NCBI GenBank assembly: GCA_021463845.1 | Contig: JAJTXV010000001.1 | Coordinates: 646,174 to 710,173, forward strand | Reading direction: 5' to 3' | Length of the DNA stretch: 64,000 bases | From: Anaerolineales bacterium | Lineage (GTDB): Bacteria > Chloroflexota > Anaerolineae > Anaerolineales > UBA11579 | Part shown: positions 34,026-45,318 of the stretch, one piece after another | How positions within the stretch are numbered: position 1 is the first letter of the stretch | Layout of the letters: each line of letters opens with the position of its first letter | Notes under the pieces: model-generated | What the model saw: only the letters and a program-made list of their open reading frames with translations | What the model was told of the DNA's origin: nothing | The model's database searches: none | Position numbers and translations under genes: made by a program

Positions 34026-35156
34026 ATGTCCACATACATTCCTGGCCTGCAAGGCGTCGTTGCCGTGCAGACCAACAAGAGCAAAGTAGATGGCCAGGCC
34101 GGCGAGCTGGTCATCGCAGGTTTCAAGCTGGAAGAGATCGCCAGCCGAGCCAGCTTTGAAGAAATGGTCTATCTGCTGTGGTTCGATAAGTTGCCCAACG
34201 CAGCCGAGCTCAAAGACTTCACCGAATCGCTGGCGCAGTTGCGCGCCCTGCCGGATGCCACGCTAGCGCTGCTGAAAGCCAGCGCCAGCCCCAAGCTGGA
34301 TCTAATGGACGCGCTGCGCATGGCCACCGGCACGCTGGGCCTCGACGCGCCGGAGGCGGACGCCGACGATTGGCTGGCCAAGCGTCTGCTGGCCACCTTC
34401 CCCACCATCGTGGCCGCTGCCTGGCGCCTCTCGCAGGGCAAAGACGCCATCGCTCCGGACCCCAGCCTGGGCCATGCCGCCAACTATCTCTACATGCTGG
34501 AGGGCGCCGCACCCAGCGCCGCCCGCGTGCGCGGGCTGGAAACCTACCTGAACACTGTGATCGATCACGGCTCGAATGCGTCCACCTTCACGGCCCGCGT
34601 GATCATGTCCACGGATACGGATTTCGTCTCGGCCATCGTCGGCGCCATCGGCGCCCTCAAAGGCCCGCTGCACGGCGGCGCACCCGGCCCGGCGCTCGAC
34701 ATGGTGTTCGAAATTGGCAAAGCGGAGAACGCCGAAGGCGTGCTGCGCAAAAAGCTCGACGCGGGCGAGTTGCTGATGGGCTTCGGCCACCGCGTCTACA
34801 AAGTGCGTGATCCGCGCGCCGATGTGCTCTCCAAGGCGGCGCGCGAATTCTACGAAGCCGACGGCGACATGGCGCTGTACAACCTGGTGCAGGACGTGGA
34901 GAAGACCGCCATCCGCCTGCTGGAAGAGTACAAGCCCGGGCGAAATTTACAGACCAACGTGGAGTTCTACACCGCCCTGCTGCTACACGGGCTGGACTTC
35001 CCCATTCCGCTGTTCACGCCCACTTTCGCCGTCAGCCGTGTGGGCGGCTGGCTGGCGCACTGCTTCGAGCAGCGCGCCGAGGGCCGCATCATCCGCCCGC
35101 AGTCTGAGTACACGGGCGTGGATGATCGCAAGTGGGTGTCGGTGGAACAACGGTAA
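34026..35156 (+). CDS. Citrate synthase (small, CitZ/2-methylcitrate synthase type)
   Basis: 376 aa. YIPGL.GV.A..T.I, LHGGA (GPLHGGAPG), GFGHRVYK..DPRA and the C-terminal IRP...Y.G. Confidence 0.92.
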   Translation: MSTYIPGLQGVVAVQTNKSKVDGQAGELVIAGFKLEEIASRASFEEMVYLLWFDKLPNAAELKDFTESLAQLRALPDATLALLKASASPKLDLMDALRMATGTLGLDAPEADADDWLAKRLLATFPTIVAAAWRLSQGKDAIAPDPSLGHAANYLYMLEGAAPSAARVRGLETYLNTVIDHGSNASTFTARVIMSTDTDFVSAIVGAIGALKGPLHGGAPGPALDMVFEIGKAENAEGVLRKKLDAGELLMGFGHRVYKVRDPRADVLSKAAREFYEADGDMALYNLVQDVEKTAIRLLEEYKPGRNLQTNVEFYTALLLHGLDFPIPLFTPTFAVSRVGGWLAHCFEQRAEGRIIRPQSEYTGVDDRKWVSVEQR

Positions 35157-35808: not shown

Positions 35809-36558
35809 TTACCCGCCGAGCAGGCTGCCGATCACATCGCCGGCCACGCCGCCGCTCTTCTTGCCGCCGGAGCGCTTGGCCCCCGCCAGGATGCGGTCGG
35901 CCAGGCGCGAGAGCGGCAGGCTCTGCAAATACACCTTGCCCGGCCCGGTCAGCTGGGCCAGGAACAGGCCCTCGCCGGCGAACAGCGCATTGGTGAAGCC
36001 CTTCATCATCTTGATGTCGTAATCCACGCTGGGCGCAAAGGCCACCAGGCAGCCGGTATCCACCCGCAGGGTTTCGCCGGGGGCCAGGGTCTTCTCGATC
36101 AGCGTGCCGCCGGCGTGCACCCAGGCCATGCCGCTGCCTTCCAGGCGCTGCAGGATGAAGCCTTCGCCGCCGAAGAGGCCCGCACCCAGCCGCCTGGTGA
36201 AAGCGATCTCGATCTCGACGCTGGTGTCCGCACACAGGAACGAATCCTTCTGGCAGATGAACTTGCCGCCCTCGGCGGTCAGGTTGATGGGCAGGATGCT
36301 GCCCGGGTACGGCGCAGCAAAGGCCACATGCGAGACGGCCTGGCTGGTATTGCTAAAGGTTGAGATGAAAAAGCTCTCGCCGGTGAACATACGCTTCAGG
36401 CCCTTGAAGATGCCGCCGACACCGGTCTGCATCTCGACGCCGCTCTCCATGAAGGTCATGGTGCCGGCTTCGCCGCGCACCGCCTCGCCGGGGTCAAGCT
36501 CGATCTCGAGCAGCTGCAGGTCATCACCGTGGATCTTGTACGTAATCTCGTTTGGCAT
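35809..36558 (-). CDS. AIM24/TIGR00266 family protein (DUF124)
   Basis: 249 aa. Y.I.G...Q.L.I.L.PGE.V..E.G.M..M..GV and F..Q..G.G..W..A.G are characteristic. There is a Gly/Lys-rich C-terminus. Confidence 0.75.
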   Translation of the reverse strand: MPNEITYKIHGDDLQLLEIELDPGEAVRGEAGTMTFMESGVEMQTGVGGIFKGLKRMFTGESFFISTFSNTSQAVSHVAFAAPYPGSILPINLTAEGGKFICQKDSFLCADTSVEIEIAFTRRLGAGLFGGEGFILQRLEGSGMAWVHAGGTLIEKTLAPGETLRVDTGCLVAFAPSVDYDIKMMKGFTNALFAGEGLFLAQLTGPGKVYLQSLPLSRLADRILAGAKRSGGKKSGGVAGDVIGSLLGG

Positions 36559-36746: not shown

Positions 36747-37073
36747 ATGGAGAAAATACTCTCACGAACAGAAGAGACCCTGCTGCTGGCGGTGTGGGCG
36801 CTGGCGCCGAACGCCTACGGCCTGGCGATCGGCGAGCACTTACGCAAGCTGACCGGCAAACGCTGGTCCGTCGGCGCGATCTACATCCCGCTGGAGCGCC
36901 TGGAGGCGCGCGGCCTGTTGGCGGCGCATGAAGGCGAGCCGACCCCGCAGCGCGGCGGGCGCAGCAAGCGCTTCTTCACGCTGACCCCGCAGGGGCTGAA
37001 GGCGCTCAACGAGGCCCGGCGGCTGCACGAAGCGCTGTGGGCCGCGGTGCCTGATGAGGGAGGGCTGGCTTGA
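36747..37073 (+). CDS. PadR family transcriptional regulator
   Basis: 108 aa. The winged-HTH pattern is LLLAVW......YGLAI..HL.....K.WS...GAIY..L.RLE.RGLL. Confidence 0.82.
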   Translation: MEKILSRTEETLLLAVWALAPNAYGLAIGEHLRKLTGKRWSVGAIYIPLERLEARGLLAAHEGEPTPQRGGRSKRFFTLTPQGLKALNEARRLHEALWAAVPDEGGLA

Positions 37074-37720
37074 TGCACAACACCATCCAGCCGCCCGCCC
37101 AGGCCACCCGCCTGCTGCGCAGCGTGTTGCCACAGCCGAGCGCCGAAGCCATTCTGGGCGACCTGCACGAAGCCTTCGTGCAGGCGGCCCACGAAGACGG
37201 CTTGCTGGCGGCCCGCATCTGGTATTGGAAAGAAGCGCTGCTGGCGCTGCCTGGCTTCGCCCTGCTGGCATTGCAAAACACGCACACTCGGAGGCAACTT
37301 GTGAACGGAAACATGGTTAGCGAAAACTGGTTTGGCAAGAACAATGGCCGCACGGCGGCCATCACGGGGATGCTGCTGCTGGTACCCGCCCTGCTAGTTG
37401 AAGGCTTTGCAGTGGCCTACGTACTGTCTGGCCGGCCGATGGCGGCGGTGATGAACACGCCGGGCCTCTCGCACCTGATGGCGGCCATGGAGAGCGGCTA
37501 TCTGAACATCGCCGGCGCCGAGCTGCCGATCGGCATTCTGGTGCTGGCGGGCATCCTGCTGGCGGCCATCATCAACTTCTTCGCCGTGGTGCAGGTCAAG
37601 CTGGAAACGGTGGAGGACGGCTACCAGGCCACGCTGACCGCTCGCCGCAAGCTGTGGAACCTGCTGCTATTGGCGCTGGTCGCAGTGCTGCTGCTGGGCA
37701 TGGACTGGCTCATCAGCTAG
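37073..37720 (+). CDS. PadR-associated membrane protein
   Basis: About 215 aa. The N-terminal cytoplasmic segment (ILGDLHEAF....R.WYWKEAL) resembles the prefix domain found next to PadR genes, and it is followed by 3-4 TM helices. TGATG overlap with padR. Confidence 0.6.
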   Translation: MHNTIQPPAQATRLLRSVLPQPSAEAILGDLHEAFVQAAHEDGLLAARIWYWKEALLALPGFALLALQNTHTRRQLVNGNMVSENWFGKNNGRTAAITGMLLLVPALLVEGFAVAYVLSGRPMAAVMNTPGLSHLMAAMESGYLNIAGAELPIGILVLAGILLAAIINFFAVVQVKLETVEDGYQATLTARRKLWNLLLLALVAVLLLGMDWLIS

Positions 37721-37810
37721 CCACCTAAGTAATCCAAAGCCTCAGGCATATGCCTGGGGCTTTTTTATTTGCCCTAAAATCGGCTAAACTTGCATTCTAG
37801 GAGCGCACAC

Positions 37811-38164
37811 ATGAAATCAATCGCGAAAATTGCATCCTGGATCCTGATCTTCTTTGGCGTGCTCTTCATCTGGGCTGCGTTTGGCACCCAGACCAGTTGG
37901 GGCAACCTGGCCACCGGCCTGATCACCGTGGGCCTGGGCTTTGGCCTGATGTGGTACGCCAACCAAAAGCTGGCCGCCCCCGGCGAACAAAAGGTGACCT
38001 ACAACGTGGACCTGACCGGCGATGTGAAGCTGGAGAAGTTCCTGTGCCAGCAGTGCGGCGGCGCCCTGAGCGACAAGAACGTGGCCCTAGTGGGCGGCGC
38101 GCTCAACGTCACCTGCCCCTACTGCGGCGCGGTCTACCAGATCGAAGAAGCCCCCAAGTGGTAA
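37811..38164 (+). CDS. Small membrane protein with C-terminal zinc ribbon
   Basis: 117 aa from MKSIAK, with AGGAG 9 nt upstream. Two TM helices are followed by CQQCGG...17...CPYCG. Confidence 0.6.
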   Translation: MKSIAKIASWILIFFGVLFIWAAFGTQTSWGNLATGLITVGLGFGLMWYANQKLAAPGEQKVTYNVDLTGDVKLEKFLCQQCGGALSDKNVALVGGALNVTCPYCGAVYQIEEAPKW

Positions 38165-38231: not shown

Positions 38232-39920
38232 ATGAAACTACGACACCGCATTCTCTCTCTTATTCTGTTGCTGCTGGTCGTGTGCGTGCCGCTCAGCGTG
38301 GCCTATGCACAGACCTATGCCTTCCAGGTGCCAACCCAGCGCGTAGATGTGTACTGGGAGCCCAACGGCACCCTGAGCGTCACCTACGAGATCACCTTTC
38401 GCAATGAGAGCTACGCGGACCCGATCGATTATGTAGACGTGGGTCTGCCCAACAATAGCTATTCGGTCTCCAACGTCAGCGCATCCATTGACGGCCGCCC
38501 CATCACCCACATTGCCTACTCGCCCTACATTGATGTTGGCGTGGAACTGGGGTTGGGCGCGTATGCGATCCAGCCCGGCCAGACCGGCACGGTGCGCATG
38601 ACCGCCACCAACGTCAGCAACGTGCTGTATGAGGATAACGAGGACAGCAGCTATGCCAGCGCGCTGTTCATGCCCAACTATTTTGACTCGGACTTTGTCA
38701 ACGGCAGCAGCGACATCACGGTGGTGTTCCACTTGCCGCCGGGCGTACAGCCCAGCGAGCCGCGCTGGCACACCGCCGGCCACCCTGGCTTCCCCGATAC
38801 ACCTGTCACCGGCGTGGATAACTCCGGCCGCATCACCTACACCTGGCGCAACACCAGTGCCAACGCCGGCGAAGACTATTTGTTCGGCGCCTCGTTCCCG
38901 GCCCGCTATGTCGCCAGCGGCAGTGTGACCGTGCCCACTTTCTGGCAGCGCTACGGCATCGATCCTGACGTGGTCATCGGCCTCCTGGTGTGCCTGTGCT
39001 TCGCCGGCTTCTTTGCTTTCATCGTGATCATCGCAGTGAGGGCTGAGCGCAGCCGCAAGCTCAAGTATTTACCGCCCAAGATCTCGGTCGAAGGGCACGG
39101 CATCAAGCGCGGCCTGACCGCGCCGGAAGCCGCCATCCTGCTTGAACAGCCGATGGACAAGATCCTCTCAATGATCATGTTCTCGGTGGTGAAAAAGGGC
39201 GCGGCGGAAGTGGTGACCCGTGACCCGCTGGATGTGGCGCGCGTCACCAAACAGCCAACCGGCTTGAAGGAATACGAGAACGACTTCCTGAACGCGTTCG
39301 CCGAAAGCGACAAAGCCAAGCGCCGGCGCGAGCTGCAGCAGATGATGGTGCGTATGGTGCGCGGCGTGGCCAACAAGATGCGCGGCTTCAGCAAGCGCGA
39401 GACGGTTGAGTTCTACAAGAAGATCACCGCTGATGCCTGGGCCGAAGTGGAAGCCGCGGATACGCCCAAGGTGAAGAGCGAAGCGTTCGACGAGAACCTG
39501 GAATGGACCATGCTGGATCCGAACTACGACCGCCGCACGCGGGATGTGTTCTCAGATGGGCCGGTGTATCTGCCGCGCTGGTATGGCGGCTACAACCCGG
39601 CCTACAACACAGCGGGCAAGACCTCATCCGCCCCCAGCGTGGGCCGCAGCAGCGGCAGCCCCACCCGCAGCACCGGCAGCCCCTCGCTGCCCACCCTGCC
39701 CGGCGGCGACTTCGCCGCCTCGGTGGTGGGCGGCGTGCAGAGCTTTGCCAGCAGCGTGGTGGGCAACCTGTCTGACTTCACCGGCGGCGTGACCAAGGTC
39801 ACCAACCCGCCGCCCCCGCCCTCTACCAGCAGCGGCGGTGGCGGCTTCAGCGGCGGCGGCTCGTCGTGTGCGTGTGCATGCGCAGGCTGCGCCTGCGCAT
39901 GCGCCGGAGGAGGCCGCTAA
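38232..39920 (+). CDS. DUF2207-like single-pass membrane protein with Ser/Gly-rich C-terminus ending in a Cys-Ala repeat (CACACAGCACACAGGGR)
   Basis: 562 aa. It has a signal peptide and an extracytoplasmic domain (Y.F.V....VDV...NG.L.V.YEI.F.N), one TM, and a cytoplasmic domain with the GIKRGLTAPEAAILLE motif. The low-complexity tail is PPPPPSTSSGGGGFSGGGSSCACACAGCACACAGGGR. The cytoplasmic domain is paralogous to 41700-42701. Confidence 0.75.
   Translation: MKLRHRILSLILLLLVVCVPLSVAYAQTYAFQVPTQRVDVYWEPNGTLSVTYEITFRNESYADPIDYVDVGLPNNSYSVSNVSASIDGRPITHIAYSPYIDVGVELGLGAYAIQPGQTGTVRMTATNVSNVLYEDNEDSSYASALFMPNYFDSDFVNGSSDITVVFHLPPGVQPSEPRWHTAGHPGFPDTPVTGVDNSGRITYTWRNTSANAGEDYLFGASFPARYVASGSVTVPTFWQRYGIDPDVVIGLLVCLCFAGFFAFIVIIAVRAERSRKLKYLPPKISVEGHGIKRGLTAPEAAILLEQPMDKILSMIMFSVVKKGAAEVVTRDPLDVARVTKQPTGLKEYENDFLNAFAESDKAKRRRELQQMMVRMVRGVANKMRGFSKRETVEFYKKITADAWAEVEAADTPKVKSEAFDENLEWTMLDPNYDRRTRDVFSDGPVYLPRWYGGYNPAYNTAGKTSSAPSVGRSSGSPTRSTGSPSLPTLPGGDFAASVVGGVQSFASSVVGNLSDFTGGVTKVTNPPPPPSTSSGGGGFSGGGSSCACACAGCACACAGGGR
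39876..39902 (+). other. Perfect 12-bp hairpin inside the Cys-Ala codons, just upstream of the next gene's SD
   Basis: GCATGCGCAGGC-TGC-GCCTGCGCATGC, followed by GGAGGAGG (39906-39913) and ATG 39920. Confidence 0.7.
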
Positions 39921-41083
39921 TGGGCTTTCTGGACAAACTGCGCGGCGGCGAGAAGGCTCAGCCGCTGGAACCCGGGCTGTTCTCCTACACCTCGCCGGCC
40001 AGCCACCCCAACCACTACCGTTTGCACTTGCGGGTTGAGCCGGGCGGCGAAGGCCTGCTGGTCATCAACGCCAGCACGGTATTGCACCTCAACCAAACCG
40101 CCACAGAGATGGCTTGGCACTTCATCCGCCTGACGCCGCCTGAGCAAGTGGCCGAGCAGGTATCCAAGCGCTATAGCACCAACAAGAAGCAGGCGGCCGA
40201 CGATTACGCCGAATTTGCCAAGACGATCCAGACCCTGATCGAAACGCCCGACCTGGACCCGGTGACGTATCTGGATGTCGACCGCGCCACACCCTATGAG
40301 GACCTGAGCGCGCCGTACCGGCTGGATATTGCACTGACCTACCGCCTGCCGGAGGGCGCCCCTGCCGAGGCGGCGCCCAGCAAGCGCGTTGAGCGCGAGC
40401 TGAGCACGGACGAGTGGAAGCAGGTGATCGACAAGGCCTACAACGCCGGCATCCCGCACATCACCTTCACGGGCGGCGAGCCGACCCTGCGCGAAGACCT
40501 GGCCGAGCTGCTGCAGCACGCCGAAGCCCGCGGCCTGGTAACCGGCCTGGTGACCGACGGCCACAAGCTCACCGACACGCGCTACCTCAAGACCCTGCTA
40601 GACGCGGGTCTGGACCATGCCATGATCGTGCTGCAGCCCAGCGGCACGCAGACCTGGGACTCGCTGGCCAGCTTTGCCTATTGGCGTGAAGTGCTGAACG
40701 ATGACATCTTCATCGCTGCCCACCTGACGCTGACCAAGGACAACGCCAGCCAGGCCAATGCGCTGATCGACAAGCTGTCGGGCAGCGGCATCCGCGCCCT
40801 CTCGCTGAGCGAAGCGGACACCTCGCTGCACGAGGCGCTGCAGGCCGCCCGCGACCATGCCGGCGCGCTGAACTTGCCGCTGGTGTGGGACCTGCCCGTG
40901 CCGTATTCGGCGCTCAATCCGGTCAGCTTGGAGCTGGCAGCCGCCCACGGCCAGGATACTCCGCAGGGGGCAGGCAAGGCCTGGCTCTACGTAGAGCCGG
41001 ATGGCGACGTGCTGCCCGGCCAGGGCGGCAAGAAGGTGCTAGGCAATTTTGTGCGCGATGAGTGGAGTGGGATTTGGAGGTAG
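39920..41083 (+). CDS. Radical-SAM-like pseudoenzyme (no CxxxCxxC, no SPASM cysteines) with N-terminal PqqD/RRE-like domain
   Basis: 387 aa. Collinear with 42876-44510, but APYRLDIALTYRLPEGAP replaces APYKVDIALTYGCNNECPHCYN, and LYVEPDGDVLPGQ replaces LCIEPNGNVLPCQ. The GGE-type motif ITFTGGEPTL is retained. The ATG overlaps the upstream TAA (TAATG). Confidence 0.75.
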   Translation: MGFLDKLRGGEKAQPLEPGLFSYTSPASHPNHYRLHLRVEPGGEGLLVINASTVLHLNQTATEMAWHFIRLTPPEQVAEQVSKRYSTNKKQAADDYAEFAKTIQTLIETPDLDPVTYLDVDRATPYEDLSAPYRLDIALTYRLPEGAPAEAAPSKRVERELSTDEWKQVIDKAYNAGIPHITFTGGEPTLREDLAELLQHAEARGLVTGLVTDGHKLTDTRYLKTLLDAGLDHAMIVLQPSGTQTWDSLASFAYWREVLNDDIFIAAHLTLTKDNASQANALIDKLSGSGIRALSLSEADTSLHEALQAARDHAGALNLPLVWDLPVPYSALNPVSLELAAAHGQDTPQGAGKAWLYVEPDGDVLPGQGGKKVLGNFVRDEWSGIWR

Positions 41084-41123: not shown

Positions 41124-41378
41124 ATGAGCGCAGAGCGAAATTTCTCTTTTCGAGTAGTGATCGAGCCGGATGACCCGGAAGGGTTTCATGGATTCGTGCC
41201 ATTGCTACCCGGCGTTCACACTGTGGGGGATACTGTCGAACAGACTAAGCAAAATCTGCGCGAGGCAATTTTGGTTCATGTAGAAGGCCTTCTGAAGGAT
41301 GGCGAAGAAATCCCTCAAGAAGGCAAGGTGCTCGAGTTGGTTGAGACCTTTTCCAGCAAGGATTTTTCCTCAAGCTAG
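41124..41378 (+). CDS. hicB: HicB family antitoxin (short form, no DNA-binding domain)
   Basis: 84 aa. The F.V.IE.D...GF...VP.LPG..T.G.T.E....N..EAI..H.E pattern is typical of HicB/UPF0150. Confidence 0.8.
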   Translation: MSAERNFSFRVVIEPDDPEGFHGFVPLLPGVHTVGDTVEQTKQNLREAILVHVEGLLKDGEEIPQEGKVLELVETFSSKDFSSS

Positions 41379-41609
41379 ATGCCAAAGCTGCCTGTTGTAA
41401 AAGCGAGGGAACTATTGAACGCGCTTCAAAGAATGGGCTTTGTTGTCCATCACCAGCGCGGCAGCCATATTCAACTCAAGCATGCGGATGGCAGACGCGT
41501 CACTGTTCCCATGCATGCAGGTACAGACATACGCAGAGGCACGCTGCGAGCAATCATCAGAGACATCGGGCTTAGTGTCGACGAATTTTTGGAACTACTG
41601 AACCGCTAA
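41379..41609 (+). CDS. hicA: HicA family mRNA-interferase toxin
   Basis: 76 aa. K.RELL.AL...GF......GSH.QLKH..GRR.TVP.H.G.DI..GTL..I..D.GLS..EF. It starts immediately after the hicB stop (TAGATG). Confidence 0.85.
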   Translation: MPKLPVVKARELLNALQRMGFVVHHQRGSHIQLKHADGRRVTVPMHAGTDIRRGTLRAIIRDIGLSVDEFLELLNR

Positions 41610-41699: not shown

Positions 41700-42701
41700 T
41701 CACCCGTAAAACGTAGTTCTACGAATATCGCTTAGCAGCGCGGCGGTCACTGCATCGCTCTCATCCCCCAAGTCGAGCTTGACGTCGCCTTCGTCTACTA
41801 TGCCGTCGAGCTCGGTGTAGACAGCCTGCACCCAGCGGGCGAAGGTGTGGCCGCCGAGGTGCACCGGCTGCTTGCGCAGCCATTGCGGCACATAGGAATA
41901 GTCCGGCTGGTCGAGCACGCTGACGAAGTCGGCGCCCAGCAGTACCCAGCCTAGGTTGCGGTTGAATATCCGCTCACGGTCGAAGGTCAGCTTGCCGTCG
42001 CTGCGGGCTTCCTTGGGGGCGCGGTCAATGATGAGGTCGTAGTAGGTGCGGGTTTCGTCGAGGCTGTAGCCCCCCGCCCGCCCGGCCACATAGCGCACCA
42101 GCGGCTGCACCGCCACGCCTAGGTCAAGCTGGCGCACGGGAACTCCAGGATGGGTCTCGATGATCTCAAGGAACGGCTCTTCAAAGGCGTGGAGGGCCGC
42201 ATTGATGGCCTGGGCGGCCAGGCGGCGGCGCTCGCCGCGCTGCTGGACGGTCAGCGCGAGACCATGCGTGCGGAAGGCTTCCTCGACTTCGACAGTGAAC
42301 GGCTCGCCGTGCGTCTGGCGCAGGATGCCTTTACGCAACAGCTCGAACAGCAGCAGAGTCAGCGTGATGTTGATCGGCCGGCCAAGCAGCACAGCCGCCT
42401 CGGGCGGCGTGAGGCCGCGCTTGACGCCGCCGCCCTCGATGCGGGCTACGGCGGGCTGGTAGCCCGCCGCCCGTGCCCGGCGCCAGGCAGCCCAACCCAG
42501 CAGGCCCAGCAACGGCACGAAGGCCAGCAGCTGCGCCAGCGGCCAAACGGCGAACAGCGCCAGCAGCCCGGCGGCTAGGGCGGCAAAGAGCAGCCGGCCC
42601 TGTCCGCGGGCCAGCTGCAAGAACAATAGCCACAGCAACGCCGTGAACACGGCGGCTGTGGCTATGCGCAGGATAGCGTTGGCTTCAAGGGCGGCGAGCA
42701 T
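41700..42701 (-). CDS. Membrane protein paralogous to the cytoplasmic domain of the DUF2207-like protein (no Cys tail)
   Basis: 333 aa. Three N-terminal TM helices precede ARIEGGGVKRGLTPPEAAVLLGRP (compare ISVEGHGIKRGLTAPEAAILLEQP). Further collinear matches: GYSLDETRTYY vs GFSKRETVEFY, RNLGWVLL vs ENLEWTML, YVPQWL vs YLPRWY. Confidence 0.7.
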   Translation of the reverse strand: MLAALEANAILRIATAAVFTALLWLLFLQLARGQGRLLFAALAAGLLALFAVWPLAQLLAFVPLLGLLGWAAWRRARAAGYQPAVARIEGGGVKRGLTPPEAAVLLGRPINITLTLLLFELLRKGILRQTHGEPFTVEVEEAFRTHGLALTVQQRGERRRLAAQAINAALHAFEEPFLEIIETHPGVPVRQLDLGVAVQPLVRYVAGRAGGYSLDETRTYYDLIIDRAPKEARSDGKLTFDRERIFNRNLGWVLLGADFVSVLDQPDYSYVPQWLRKQPVHLGGHTFARWVQAVYTELDGIVDEGDVKLDLGDESDAVTAALLSDIRRTTFYG

Positions 42702-42875: not shown

Positions 42876-44510
42876 TTATTGCCCGCTCATTACACCGATC
42901 TCGTCCAGCCCGATCATGTCAAAGTTGCCGCTGGCGCGGGTCTTGGTGCGGGTCGTGCTGGGCGACGGCGTGAAGCCGCCAGCAGGAATATACCCAGCGG
43001 TGTGCGAGTGCCCCTTCACCTGATGGGCTGAGTTGCCAGTGCCGCAGCTGCCGCTGCAGCCCGAGCAGCCGCCCCCGCTGCCCTCGGCCACACGCACACC
43101 GTCACGCGCTTCGCGTTCGATGCGGCAGCCGCCGCCGCACAGCGGCAGGTCCGGGCAGGTCCAGCATTTTTCGGGCAGGCCGTAACCCTTGGGGTCCAGC
43201 TCGCGGTAGCGGAAGCTGCGGAACAGCTCGCCATCCCAGATCTTTTCCCATGGGTCGTGCAGGATGTTGCCGGCCGACACGTAGTACGACTGGCACGGCA
43301 GCACGTTGCCGTTGGGCTCGATGCACAGCGAATACTCGCCGGCGTTGCAGCGCTTGGCGCCAATCTCAAGCTCAACCGGCGACATGCGGCAATACTCAGT
43401 GGGCGTGTACCACAGGAAGCGCATGCCAAGCTCGCGGGCCTTGTCACGCACGCGCACCAGCAAGGCCGGCATCTCTTTCTCGTCAATGGCGTTGGAGTGC
43501 GCAAAACCACCGCCGGAGTAGATGAGGCCATTCATAGCGAAGGTGCGGATGCCGAGCGAATACAGGAACTCAATGATCTCCTCGACATGGCCCATGTTGG
43601 CGCGCATCAGGGTGGTGTTGGTGATCACATGCACCCGGCTGGCGATGGCATTCTCGATACCTTGCACGGTCTGGTGCCAGGCCTTGGCGCCCATCATGGC
43701 GTTGTGTACATCCGGGCGGTTGGAATCGAGCGTGAACTGCACATGGTTCAAGCCGGCCTCAGCCAGCTCTTGCATGTACTCATTGTGGGCAATGTGGCGG
43801 CCGTTGGTGTTGAGGCCGACGACCATGCCGAGCTGATCGGCATAGCGAATGACCTGCGGCAGGTCCGGGTGCAGAGTGGCTTCACCGCCAGTGAGGATCA
43901 GGTGCGGCACGCCCAGCTCGGCCAGGCGGTCGAGCACCGCGTACCATTCATTCAGCGGCAGCGAGGGCATGTTGAGGCGGTCGGCCTCGTTATAGCAGTG
44001 CGGGCACTCGTTGTTGCAGCCATAAGTCAGGGCGATGTCGACTTTGTACGGCGCGTTGACTTCCACGCTGAACATAGGCGACATTTCCAGCGTATCGCTC
44101 AGCTCGCAGGTCGGGCAGTCACCGTCCGGGTGGGCAAAGCCCTCGACCATGTCGTAGATCTGGGTCAGCTCGCGCTCGATCTGGGCCAGCGGCGCCTCAG
44201 GGTGCCAGCCGCCGATGCGGGCGCGAGCTTGCGCCCGCGGCACGCCGTCGAGGGCCATCTTGGCCATCAGGGCGGCGGTGTGGTTGAGGTGGACCACATC
44301 GGTCACATCCACGAACATCACGCCGTTGCCGCTGGGCTCGATGCGTAAGTGAATACGCATGCTGCGCCCATTGGCCATTGCGATGTCATAGGTATGCAAA
44401 CCGGTGCGGGGTTTTTCGGGCTGGGAAAAGGCCGCCAGGAAATTGGCCGTGTCGCTGCGCACTCCCTGCCACAATTTATTGACGGAAGCAGAACGGATAT
44501 CGAGGGCCAT
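42876..44510 (-). CDS. Radical SAM/SPASM enzyme with N-terminal PqqD/RRE-like domain and Cys/Ser/Gly-rich C-terminal extension
   Basis: 544 aa. CNNECPHC is the CxxxCxxC motif and LILTGGEATL is the GGE motif. The SPASM motifs are C..8..CIEPNGNVLPC and CWTCPDLPLCGGGC. The N-terminal ~130 aa resemble PqqD/RRE domains (VVHLNHTAALMAKMAL...). About 85 aa extend beyond SPASM and contain GSGGGCSGCSGSCGTG. Confidence 0.85.
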   Translation of the reverse strand: MALDIRSASVNKLWQGVRSDTANFLAAFSQPEKPRTGLHTYDIAMANGRSMRIHLRIEPSGNGVMFVDVTDVVHLNHTAALMAKMALDGVPRAQARARIGGWHPEAPLAQIERELTQIYDMVEGFAHPDGDCPTCELSDTLEMSPMFSVEVNAPYKVDIALTYGCNNECPHCYNEADRLNMPSLPLNEWYAVLDRLAELGVPHLILTGGEATLHPDLPQVIRYADQLGMVVGLNTNGRHIAHNEYMQELAEAGLNHVQFTLDSNRPDVHNAMMGAKAWHQTVQGIENAIASRVHVITNTTLMRANMGHVEEIIEFLYSLGIRTFAMNGLIYSGGGFAHSNAIDEKEMPALLVRVRDKARELGMRFLWYTPTEYCRMSPVELEIGAKRCNAGEYSLCIEPNGNVLPCQSYYVSAGNILHDPWEKIWDGELFRSFRYRELDPKGYGLPEKCWTCPDLPLCGGGCRIEREARDGVRVAEGSGGGCSGCSGSCGTGNSAHQVKGHSHTAGYIPAGGFTPSPSTTRTKTRASGNFDMIGLDEIGVMSGQ

Positions 44511-44586: not shown

Positions 44587-45318
44587 ATGCAACCTGCCCT
44601 CGCACACCAGCGCTATACCCAGCAAGCCGCCTGGACCGCCCCAGCCCGCCGCCACCTGCTGGCGGCGGCCGGGCTGCCGAATGCGCGCCGCATACTGGAG
44701 GTGGGCTGCGGCACAGGCGCCATCCTGCGCGGCGTAGCCATGCCGCCGGGCGGCCGTCTGCATGCGCTGGACATAGACCGCGCCGCCCTCACGCTGGCCC
44801 GCCAGCACGCGCCGCAGGCGCACCTGGCGGCGGGCGACGCGCATACCCTGCCCTACCCTCACGCCAGCTTTGACATTGCCTATTGTCATTTTGTGCTGCT
44901 ATGGCTGGCAGACCCAGAACGCGGTCTGGCTGAGATGCGCCGCGTGGTGCGGCCCGGCGGCGCGGTGCTGGCATTGGCCGAGCCGGACTACAGCCAGCGC
45001 AGCGACGAGCCAGCCGAACTGGCCGCGCTGGGGCATGCGCAGACCGAAGCCCTGCGCGCCCGCGGCGCTGACCCCGCTGCGGGCGGCCAACTGCCTGCGT
45101 TGTTTGCGGCGGCCGGGCTGCACATCGTCGACGCCGGGCCGCTGCAAGTCAGCAGCCCGGCCGCAGAAGGCGAAGCCAGCACGCTGCGCGTCGACCTGAG
45201 CGGGCATGTGCCCGCCGAGCAGCTGGAGCGATGGCTAGCGCAGGACGCTGCGGCCTGGGCAGCGGGCACGCGCAGGCTACATGTGCCCACCTACTACGCC
45301 TTCGGGCGGGTGCGGTAG
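44587..45318 (+). CDS. Class I SAM-dependent methyltransferase
   Basis: 243 aa. Motif I is ILEVGCGTGAILRG, followed by the post-I region and FDIAYCHFVLLWLADPERGLAEMRRVVRPGGAVL. Confidence 0.85.
   Translation: MQPALAHQRYTQQAAWTAPARRHLLAAAGLPNARRILEVGCGTGAILRGVAMPPGGRLHALDIDRAALTLARQHAPQAHLAAGDAHTLPYPHASFDIAYCHFVLLWLADPERGLAEMRRVVRPGGAVLALAEPDYSQRSDEPAELAALGHAQTEALRARGADPAAGGQLPALFAAAGLHIVDAGPLQVSSPAAEGEASTLRVDLSGHVPAEQLERWLAQDAAAWAAGTRRLHVPTYYAFGRVR

Follow-up and report, generated by a model that had tools for sequence, protein, structure and literature searches.

The locus described here raises a simple question: is the unusual 3′ end of one of its genes kept for the peptide that it encodes or for the RNA structure that it can form? 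The gene lies in a stretch of 64,000 nucleotides from an Anaerolineales bacterium (contig JAJTXV010000001.1 of assembly GCA_021463845.1, positions 646,174 to 710,173), hereafter the window, whose own numbering is used throughout. Its open reading frame (ORF), 38232..39920 on the forward strand, encodes a 562-residue membrane protein with the C-terminal end ...NPPPPPSTSSGGGGFSGGGSSCACACAGCACACAGGGR*. A first-pass annotation, made from the sequence alone, had drawn attention to this Cys-Ala tail, to a perfect 12-bp palindrome in the same nucleotides, and to a Shine-Dalgarno (SD) sequence placed 3 nt beyond the palindrome and serving an overlapping downstream gene. It had suggested that the tail could be a substrate or a metal or Fe-S ligand of neighboring radical S-adenosylmethionine (rSAM) machinery, or that the hairpin could gate translational coupling. 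All these elements are indeed present at 39861..39922 (Table 1). Both the sequence and its translation confirm six cysteines encoded by heterogeneous codons (TGT GCG TGT GCA TGC GCA GGC TGC GCC TGC GCA TGC GCC GGA GGA GGC CGC TAA), so that the tail is not a slippage microsatellite. The computed stem length is 12, and both the SD (GGAGGAGG) and the overlapping start are there. The product of the overlapping gene is a pseudo-rSAM protein, as had been proposed, with a PqqD domain and a partial Radical_SAM domain without CxxxCxxC. As to the question itself, the comparative evidence indicates that the tail is a functional peptide module and not an RNA element, with extreme purifying selection acting on the peptide.

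This evidence comes from homologs gathered in three independent ways: by a word-indexed protein search, by a HMMER scan with a query lacking the tail, and by a DNA-pattern scan of metagenome contigs. More than 3653 homologous clusters at 90% identity came from the protein search. Among the best 120 (41-99% identical), every one ends in C-A-C-A-C-(A-C)-A-G-C-A-C-A-C-A-G-G-G-R except P0048, the tail of which looks frameshifted. The full HMMER scan with the tail-less query yielded 828 representatives at 50% identity, and the tail stands at the end of 106 of the best 150; the remaining 44, judged by their C-terminal sequences, are mostly truncated- or frameshifted-looking ORFs. Scanning metagenome contigs for DNA encoding nothing but CACACAGGGR and a stop codon gave 127 matches, 114 of them homologous to the body of the family and the other 13 too short to be placed (11 cut by contig ends, two short fragments). 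A tail-less query finds the tail and a tail-only scan finds the family; therefore, the association is not an artifact of ascertainment, and tail and family define each other. On the last set of counts we also rejected the idea of a portable module carried by other proteins. The tail is exclusive to one family, present in at least 391 GTDB species and so far found only in Anaerolineae (Chloroflexota).

Conservation of the peptide extends far beyond close relatives. (CA)n..CACAGGGR-COOH stands at the end of about 200 homologs, the most distant of them about 30% identical. We also assembled 80 loci from distinct GTDB species, all Anaerolineae or Chloroflexota and including the complete Leptolinea sp. 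HRD-7 genome (locus L057); all 79 complete genes in them end in ...CACAGCACACAGGGR. Anaerolinea thermophila is another cultured carrier of the gene. An alignment of 130 sequences with a mean column identity of 21% has D69 and C555-G561 as its sole invariant columns, so that the tail accounts for seven of the eight. The codons tell a different story. While the peptide CACACAGCACACA is common to 80 of 80 sequences, cysteine is encoded by TGC 245 times vs TGT 229 times and alanine by GCC (258), GCT (94), GCG (81) and GCA (41). Such a wide codon mix within an invariant peptide means that the synonymous sites of the tail are saturated. The first-pass annotation had left it to an alignment of orthologs to tell whether cysteine spacing or the DNA palindrome is conserved, and had regarded tails devoid of cysteines as fatal to its proposal. 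It is the spacing, at the protein level, that is kept; the palindrome is not, and orthologous tails retain their cysteines.

What variation there is stays within a narrow range. Most orthologous tails have 6-8 cysteines, and the number of CA units varies within narrow limits. The main type is CACACACAG-CACACAGGGR, the form CACAG-CACACACAGGGR is found in a subfamily of proteins of about 600 residues that is often tandemly duplicated, and CACACACACAGGGR and rare short forms make up the rest. Nearly all tails end in CACAGGGR; in the one exception seen, P0246, the end is GGGA. With its repetitive dipeptide composition and its position next to a Gly/Ser-rich low-complexity linker, the tail might be suspected of being a non-functional, low-complexity or slippage-derived extension, or even an annotation artifact. 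We consider the probability of this negligible, given a peptide that is invariant over hundreds of species at saturated synonymous sites while the neighboring linker is free to vary, a reading frame that is intact in all complete genes, and a constrained count of CA units.

The remaining question is whether the DNA carries a second message. According to this alternative, the selected feature is the RNA hairpin, which would occlude the SD or time access to it and so gate the coupling of the pseudo-rSAM gene. At first sight the window makes a good case for it. The perfect stem lies very close to the SD, and the minimum-free-energy fold of an 81-nt RNA (-45.3 kcal/mol) pairs the SD region too. 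The stem needs codons that are rare in this genome: GCA is used three times in the tail vs 11 of 185 Ala codons elsewhere, and TGT twice vs 0 of 20 Cys codons elsewhere. Given the peptide, a stem of at least 12 bp has a probability of about 1.5e-4 with the codon usage of this window and of 5e-5 with the codon pool of orthologous tails. However, among 86 sequences examined the 12-bp stem is unique to the window. The longest perfect stem measures 2-7 bp in 79 orthologs and 3-8 bp in six closer relatives, and the distribution of stem lengths in orthologs is that of the synonymous-codon resampling null. In L081, which encodes a 93%-identical protein and keeps the same TAATG overlap, the stem is 4 bp long, and in L082-L086 it is 3-8 bp. 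Moreover, the z-score of the fold is only -2.34 relative to dinucleotide shuffles, an Rfam search of the region gave no family match (the only match, at E 0.66, is far below the gathering score), and the overlapping arrangement is missing from most lineages. The palindrome comes from codon complementarity, Cys TGC being the reverse complement of Ala GCA and Gly GGC that of Ala GCC. Cys-Ala repeats thus generate DNA palindromes automatically, and a perfect hairpin in such a place is no evidence for RNA-level function. The 12-bp hairpin is a strain-specific by-product of codon choice and not a product of selection. Gating of translational coupling, the second proposal of the first-pass annotation, finds no support as a conserved mechanism, the stem being missing in all 85 orthologs, and we regard a selected hairpin as very improbable.

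The SD itself has an ordinary explanation. The downstream start overlaps the tail gene in 18 of 69 loci, with either a true or a pseudo-rSAM gene as the next one. GGAGG within the Gly codons occurs at 13 of these 18 loci vs 18 of the 51 without overlap (Fisher p = 0.012). GGAGG in these codons is a normal SD, employed in lineages in which the following gene begins within the stop codon, and the coupling is likewise ordinary and lineage-specific. A side effect of codon choice can be seen in the alternative frame (39866-39922, forward strand), where the GCATGC motifs of the tail yield in-frame ATGs at 39878 and 39896, upstream of the pseudo-rSAM start. Initiation there would add an Arg-rich N-terminal extension to the pseudo-rSAM protein (MRRLRLRMRRRRPL-MGF...). 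This extension is probably not used, since the ATGs are missing in close relatives, which use GCC.

If the peptide is what is kept, what might it be kept for? The gene neighborhood offers clues. By tblastn, the gene next upstream encodes a small zinc-ribbon protein in 79 of the 80 loci, and rSAM-family genes lie downstream in 76. Clustering of ORFs gave the dominant order as zinc-ribbon gene, tail gene, true rSAM/SPASM gene, pseudo-rSAM gene and, often, a class-I S-adenosylmethionine (SAM)-dependent methyltransferase gene. The two rSAM-family products are easily told apart: the true enzyme has 12-19 cysteines, and the pseudo-rSAM protein, of about 380 residues, has 0-3 in nearly all full-length orthologs. 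The methyltransferase was found in 43 of 81 loci, in the distant-subfamily loci L088 and L089 as well. Where the flank is long enough, about 90% of loci show synteny with both the true and the pseudo-rSAM gene, and this holds for subfamilies of differing gene order. In the distant subfamily (about 30% identity) the same genes occur in another order, namely zinc-ribbon, rSAM, pseudo-rSAM, tail gene in L087 and rSAM, tail gene, methyltransferase in L088. The 36 metagenome loci that were ascertained by the tail and have enough flank include the true rSAM gene in 32 cases, the pseudo-rSAM gene in 25, the zinc-ribbon gene in 32 and the methyltransferase gene in 22. Taken together, these data indicate that the tail gene is genetically locked to a peptide-maturase-type rSAM/SPASM enzyme, equipped with a recognition element (RRE) of the kind found in enzymes that make ribosomally synthesized and post-translationally modified peptides (RiPPs), and to its dead paralog.

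The window itself belongs to a rearranged lineage, together with L001, L002, L081-L083 and L086; L003, L006 and L010 have at least the pseudo-rSAM-first order. In this lineage the pseudo-rSAM gene directly follows the tail gene, and the true rSAM/SPASM gene (42876-44510, reverse strand) is a few kb off, in the window divergent from the methyltransferase gene (44587-45318). One part of the earlier proposal has to be amended. The first-pass annotation had placed the rSAM partner next to the tail gene; the pseudo-rSAM gene does overlap it, but the catalytically competent partner is the true rSAM/SPASM protein, the gene for which follows the tail gene directly in most other genomes.

In the true rSAM enzyme, the CNNECPHC motif is accompanied by SPASM cysteines, CWTCPDLPLCGGGC in the window and C..C.....CGGGCP in orthologs. 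Its best relatives of solved structure are SkfB (7e-17) and PqqE (1e-16), with SuiB also among the nearest. The pseudo-rSAM protein is its full-length paralog (27% identity, E 1e-49), in which LPEGAPAE is aligned to CNNECPHC and every Fe-S cysteine is replaced, while the GGE motif is retained. Against Pfam it matches Radical_SAM (3.6e-11) and PqqD (PF05402; 1.4e-5, 25.8 bits, above the gathering score). The zinc-ribbon protein gave weak zinc-ribbon matches in Pfam. Its C-terminus reads ...CPYC.T.YQLTEEPKW-COOH (pattern YQ.EE.PKW), ending in PKW in 76 of 77 orthologs and in PRW in one; this end and each of the two CxxC pairs are kept by 95% or more of the 77. Enzymes of the rSAM/SPASM type that cross-link Lys-Trp and Trp-Gly-Lys are known. 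The zinc-ribbon C-terminus might serve as a second substrate, or one of the two RRE domains might dock on it. In the rearranged lineage there is an additional gene (in the window and in L001, L002, L081, L082, L083 and L086), seen only there, for a paralog of the cytoplasmic domain of the tail protein that has neither ectodomain nor tail. Its position right after the true rSAM gene, on the same strand, makes co-transcription likely. Because the true rSAM adjoins a paralog of that very domain, this arrangement suggests that the cytoplasmic domain of the tail protein may be the docking partner of the true enzyme. Candidate RRE-binding peptides are FTGGVTKVTNPPPPP, the Cys-Ala tail and the ...YQLTEEPKW end of the zinc-ribbon protein.

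Our preferred reading, to which we give an even chance, is that the rSAM pair acts on the flexible cytoplasmic tail as a tethered substrate, probably by introducing thioether cross-links. In this proposal, the tail would act as a tethered, cis-encoded 'core peptide'. The rSAM pair would dock on the C-terminal part of the membrane protein and act on its alternating Cys and Ala residues, the catalytically dead paralog assisting the rSAM/SPASM enzyme as a docking or chaperone subunit. The most plausible chemistry would be the formation of thioether cross-links from Cys sulfur to carbon, as in sactipeptides and ranthipeptides. The resulting structure would be rigid, fixed in its chemistry, attached to the protein and possibly able to bind metal, and the methyltransferase may modify it further. 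A single fixed product would account for Ala, Gly and the terminal GGGR being no less invariant than the cysteines. Several observations support this proposal. CxxxCxxC, SPASM and PqqD/RRE together define an enzyme of the peptide-maturase type, and there is no other conserved small-ORF candidate for its substrate: among small ORFs of 18-95 residues in and around the cassette, none is conserved in more than 14 of 81 loci, which leaves no separate precursor peptide and the tail of the 562-residue protein as the sole Cys-rich candidate, and those that recur look out-of-frame or antisense inside larger neighboring genes. The architecture of the tail protein also fits. A signal peptide, one transmembrane helix and a cytoplasmic C-terminal half precede a tail that is disordered in the model, with a predicted local distance difference test (pLDDT) below 50 compared with values above 90 for the folded domains.

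A number of points weigh against a modified tail. Synteny ties the genes together but does not tie the rSAM enzyme to a given target, and the cross-link chemistry is conjectural. The C-terminus of a membrane protein of about 560 residues would be an unusual substrate for an RRE-dependent rSAM/SPASM enzyme compared with a short leader-core peptide. Besides the tail protein itself, the only families conserved in the loci are those of the zinc-ribbon protein, the rSAM proteins and the methyltransferase, with neither a leader protease nor an exporter among them. A few loci have the tail gene and no detectable rSAM gene in the fetched flank. The N-terminus of the window's own true rSAM has no significant Pfam match to PqqD; we infer an RRE there because the L057 ortholog has a PqqD (PF05402) match of 26.8 bits, above the gathering score, and because the N-terminal region aligns with the PqqD domain of the paralog. 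The invariant EEPKW-COOH end of the zinc-ribbon protein could be the real substrate or a second one. Finally, CxCxC clusters are classic metal ligands of the metallothionein kind, and an unmodified metal-binding role would fit the sequence equally well.

This last point leads to the main rival explanation, which we consider on balance rather unlikely. It holds that the tail is an unmodified metal- or Fe-S-binding arm, similar to a metallothionein or to the 'swinging arm' of a carrier. An extended (CA)n strand would present six or seven thiols on one face, as ligands for Zn, Cu(I) or an Fe-S cluster. The rSAM pair would have another target, such as the zinc-ribbon protein with its EEPKW end, a lipid or a small molecule, or would draw a cluster or electrons from the tail. 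The tail of the window, CxCxCxxCxCxC, consists of clustered CxC motifs with small spacers typical of metal-thiolate clusters, some orthologs have His just ahead of the first Cys (HSCAC, HHSCAC), and the tail is predicted to be flexible and cytoplasmic. There is also the second invariant C-terminus in the cassette, and the WgkB model is among the NCBIfam matches. Yet the spacers of metal-binding Cys clusters normally vary, whereas here the Ala, Gly and GGGR residues are fixed to the same degree as the cysteines, a pattern better suited to a substrate recognized by an enzyme or to a defined covalent product. In addition, an unmodified arm would leave the order-independent linkage with an RRE-bearing rSAM enzyme and a dead paralog without a peptide target, except for the zinc-ribbon protein. 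The first half of the earlier proposal, a tail that is a substrate or a metal or Fe-S ligand of the rSAM machinery, is strongly supported as far as a functional link goes (invariant peptide, restriction to one family, synteny), and the choice between the two chemistries is a matter of interpretation.

Returning to the modified tail, we put forward a more specific version somewhat more tentatively, as possible but short of an even chance. In this version the cassette, which seems to be widespread in the class Anaerolineae, would use its RRE-bearing rSAM/SPASM enzyme and the dead paralog to turn the invariant (CA)n-GGGR C-terminus of an integral membrane protein into a covalently cross-linked and maybe metal- or cluster-binding structure attached to the protein, that is, into a tethered protein-derived cofactor. 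The zinc-ribbon EEPKW-COOH could then be a second partner or substrate. If this is true, RiPP-style radical chemistry builds a cofactor on a membrane protein instead of on a secreted peptide. Invariance of a Cys/Ala/Gly sequence of 15-19 residues is rare, and it predicts one defined product, cofactor or metal site. If the tail is modified by the rSAM pair at all, the cytoplasmic tail of a membrane protein would join small secreted peptides and soluble enzyme subunits as a target of RRE-dependent rSAM/SPASM chemistry, a function would be assigned to a conserved pseudo-rSAM, and the modification would be a lineage-wide trait of Anaerolineae. These bacteria are abundant in sludge, sediments and anaerobic digesters and are biochemically poorly characterized. 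We found no Pfam or NCBIfam model for the tail protein and no published description of the tail or the cassette in literature on the tail sequence, DUF2207, pseudo-SAM proteins, Cys-Ala repeats and Chloroflexi rSAM RiPPs.

How does the cassette compare with known systems? It resembles RRE-dependent rSAM/SPASM maturation as known for sactipeptides, ranthipeptides, pyrroloquinoline quinone (PQQ) and mycofactocin, but by its sequences and gene content it appears to belong to none of them. With sactipeptide systems (SkfA/SkfB, subtilosin/AlbA) and with ranthipeptide/SCIFF systems (CteB, PapB-freyrasin) it shares a CxxxCxxC rSAM enzyme, SPASM cysteines, an N-terminal PqqD-like RRE and a Cys-dense repetitive sequence as the candidate target. 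SkfB, the best relative of solved structure by sequence, is a thioether synthase, and the sub-threshold NCBIfam matches include StsB sactipeptide maturase, SCIFF-type and other RiPP maturase models. Unlike in those systems, there is no short separate precursor, the candidate core being the C-terminus of a 562-residue membrane protein; this core is invariant and not hypervariable, no protease or exporter is conserved, and a dead rSAM paralog is an obligatory partner. Neither rSAM protein reaches an NCBIfam equivalog cut-off. A SCIFF precursor has about 45 residues and is encoded beside its cognate maturase, and the 562-residue protein has no NCBIfam match.

Modification of whole proteins has precedents. 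QhpD acts on QhpC, forming Cys-Asp/Glu thioethers, and anaerobic sulfatase-maturing enzymes (anSMEs) likewise modify whole proteins. As there, a SPASM-family rSAM enzyme would here act on Cys of a folded protein that keeps the modification. The substrates of QhpD and anSMEs, in contrast, are soluble enzyme subunits with other motifs; they lack a membrane anchor and a (CA)n repeat and do not involve a pseudo-rSAM partner, and the NCBIfam search did not place the cassette rSAM in either group. PqqA/PqqD/PqqE and MftA/MftB/MftC provide another parallel. They are RRE-dependent, and their core residues are invariant since the product is a single defined molecule; in mycofactocin it is the C-terminus itself that is modified. 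PqqE is the top NCBIfam match of both rSAM proteins (121.5 and 84.5 bits vs an equivalog cut-off of 381) and the second-best PDB match. The differences are that the substrate would be no small peptide and that the Glu/Tyr and Val-Tyr motifs and the accessory genes are absent here.

Other likenesses concern single components. The haloarchaeal pseudo-SAM/SPASM protein TIGR04347 also lacks the cluster cysteines and is encoded beside a true rSAM. Membership of the pseudo-rSAM in that family was rejected (57.8 bits vs a cut-off of 525), and as taxon and gene context differ too, this is an independent case. The tail protein is organized like DUF2207 proteins (PF09972/PF20990), with a signal peptide, a β-sandwich ectodomain, a transmembrane helix, a helical cytoplasmic domain and a Gly-rich C-terminal tail. 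To our knowledge, DUF2207 tails are Gly-rich without cysteines and have no rSAM gene linkage. DUF2207 membership was likewise rejected: the best matches, found in a single one of 12 members each, have E 0.99 (10 bits vs a gathering score of 24.4) and E 0.065. Metallothioneins have CxC clusters, and the periplasmic SoxY has a GGCGG-COOH swinging arm with a single Cys. Single small residues between cysteines, and a Gly-flanked Cys-bearing C-terminus on a flexible arm, recall both; there is no homology, however, metallothionein spacers vary, and neither is tied to rSAM enzymes.

Table 1. The tail gene, the elements of its 3′ end and the cassette genes in the window
Feature	Position	Strand	Basis or remark
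Type-I membrane protein of 562 residues, uncharacterized Anaerolineae family, bearing the Cys-Ala tail	38232..39920	+	ORF
Predicted signal peptide, residues 1-26 (...AYA/QTY)	38232..38309	+	N-terminal helix 2-21 in the model; cleavage site predicted from sequence
Extracytoplasmic β-sandwich domain, residues 31-223	38322..38900	+	Strands in the model, pLDDT >90
Single transmembrane helix, residues 245-276, then RAERSRKLKY	38964..39059	+	Helix in the model; topology predicted from sequence
Cytoplasmic helical/winged-helix-like domain, residues 282-524	39075..39803	+	Conserved columns; model pLDDT ~90-98
Flexible Pro/Ser/Gly linker NPPPPPSTSSGGGGFSGGG	39804..39860	+	Length and sequence vary among orthologs
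C-terminal tail SSCACACAGCACACAGGGR-COOH	39861..39917	+	Feature under selection; candidate tethered substrate or metal-binding arm
Perfect 12-bp inverted repeat	39876..39902	+	GCATGCGCAGGC (39876-39887), loop TGC, GCCTGCGCATGC (39891-39902)
SD GGAGGAGG of the downstream gene	39906..39913	+	3 nt past the palindrome, within the Gly-Gly-Gly codons
TAATG stop/start overlap (translational coupling)	39918..39922	+	TAA 39918-39920, ATG of the next gene 39920-39922
Small membrane protein with two predicted transmembrane helices and a C-terminal CxxC...CxxC zinc ribbon	37808..38164	+	Translation; first cassette gene
Pseudo-rSAM: PqqD-type RRE, radical-SAM-like barrel, truncated SPASM region	39920..41083	+	Pfam
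True radical-SAM/SPASM enzyme (CNNECPHC; CX2CX5CX3C)	42876..44510	-	Pfam Radical_SAM 1e-27, SPASM (PF13186) 1.8e-11
Membrane protein of 333 residues (GVKRGLTPPEAA...), paralog of the cytoplasmic domain of the tail protein	41700..42701	-	BLASTP E 4e-16
Class-I SAM-dependent methyltransferase, frequent fifth cassette member	44587..45318	+	Pfam Methyltransf_11 6e-23

The architecture of the tail protein was derived from an AlphaFold2 model with a mean pLDDT of 88.9 and from the alignment of its family; the protein has no Pfam match, no NCBIfam family at E up to 0.01 and no sequence relative in the PDB. A24, A26 and Q27 are conserved around the predicted end of the signal peptide. Foldseek matched the ectodomain best to the ribophorin I/OST1 subunit of oligosaccharyltransferase and also to the N-domain of M1 aminopeptidases (E 2.5e-8 to 1e-6). 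Basic residues after the transmembrane helix probably put the C-terminal half, with the tail, in the cytoplasm (positive-inside rule). The motifs conserved in the cytoplasmic domain are GIKRGLTAxEAA, KMKGFS, EWTMLD and FTxxVTxxTNP. Toward the C-terminus the confidence of the model falls: pLDDT is about 56 across residues 531-540 and less than 50 from residue 536 on, and residues 536-562 are disordered.

Several members of the family depart from this plan. A form of about 770 residues has a duplicated ectodomain (P0058, P0062, P0067, P0079, P0100 and others). Tandem gene duplicates (L094, L100, L103, L124, L155, L171, L184, L089) mostly belong to the CACAG-CACACACAGGGR subfamily, L184 being a main-type exception, and in L089 a copy with a shortened tail (SCACAGGGR) stands beside a full-tail copy. 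The true rSAM of the window's lineage has a peculiarity of its own, an extra C-terminal extension of about 80 residues (42876-43050, reverse strand; also in L002) that opens with the Gly/Cys-rich GGGCSGCSGSCGTG. This extension is missing in most orthologs, which end soon after the SPASM CGGGCP.

Some neighbors in the window were considered as cassette members and rejected. Just upstream of the cassette, a PadR-family regulator gene (36747-37073, forward strand) overlaps the start of a gene for a membrane protein with 'permease prefix domain 2' (37070-37720, forward strand). This pair is probably unrelated to the cassette, since neither PadR nor the permease-prefix protein, nor HicAB, has a tblastn match in any of the 80 loci. 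At the equivalent place in L084 there is a PadR gene followed by an overlapping unannotated gene of 228 codons. Between the pseudo-rSAM gene and the paralog gene, the window encodes a HicB antitoxin (41124-41378, forward strand; Pfam match) and then a HicA-toxin-like ORF of 76 residues (41379-41609, forward strand). A HicB/HicA pair annotated by Pfam occupies the corresponding site in L086, which suggests that this junction is a hotspot of insertion. Further upstream lie genes for an AIM24-family protein (35809-36558, reverse strand) and a citrate synthase (34026-35156, forward strand), which are syntenic only in the closest relatives (L081-L083, L085).

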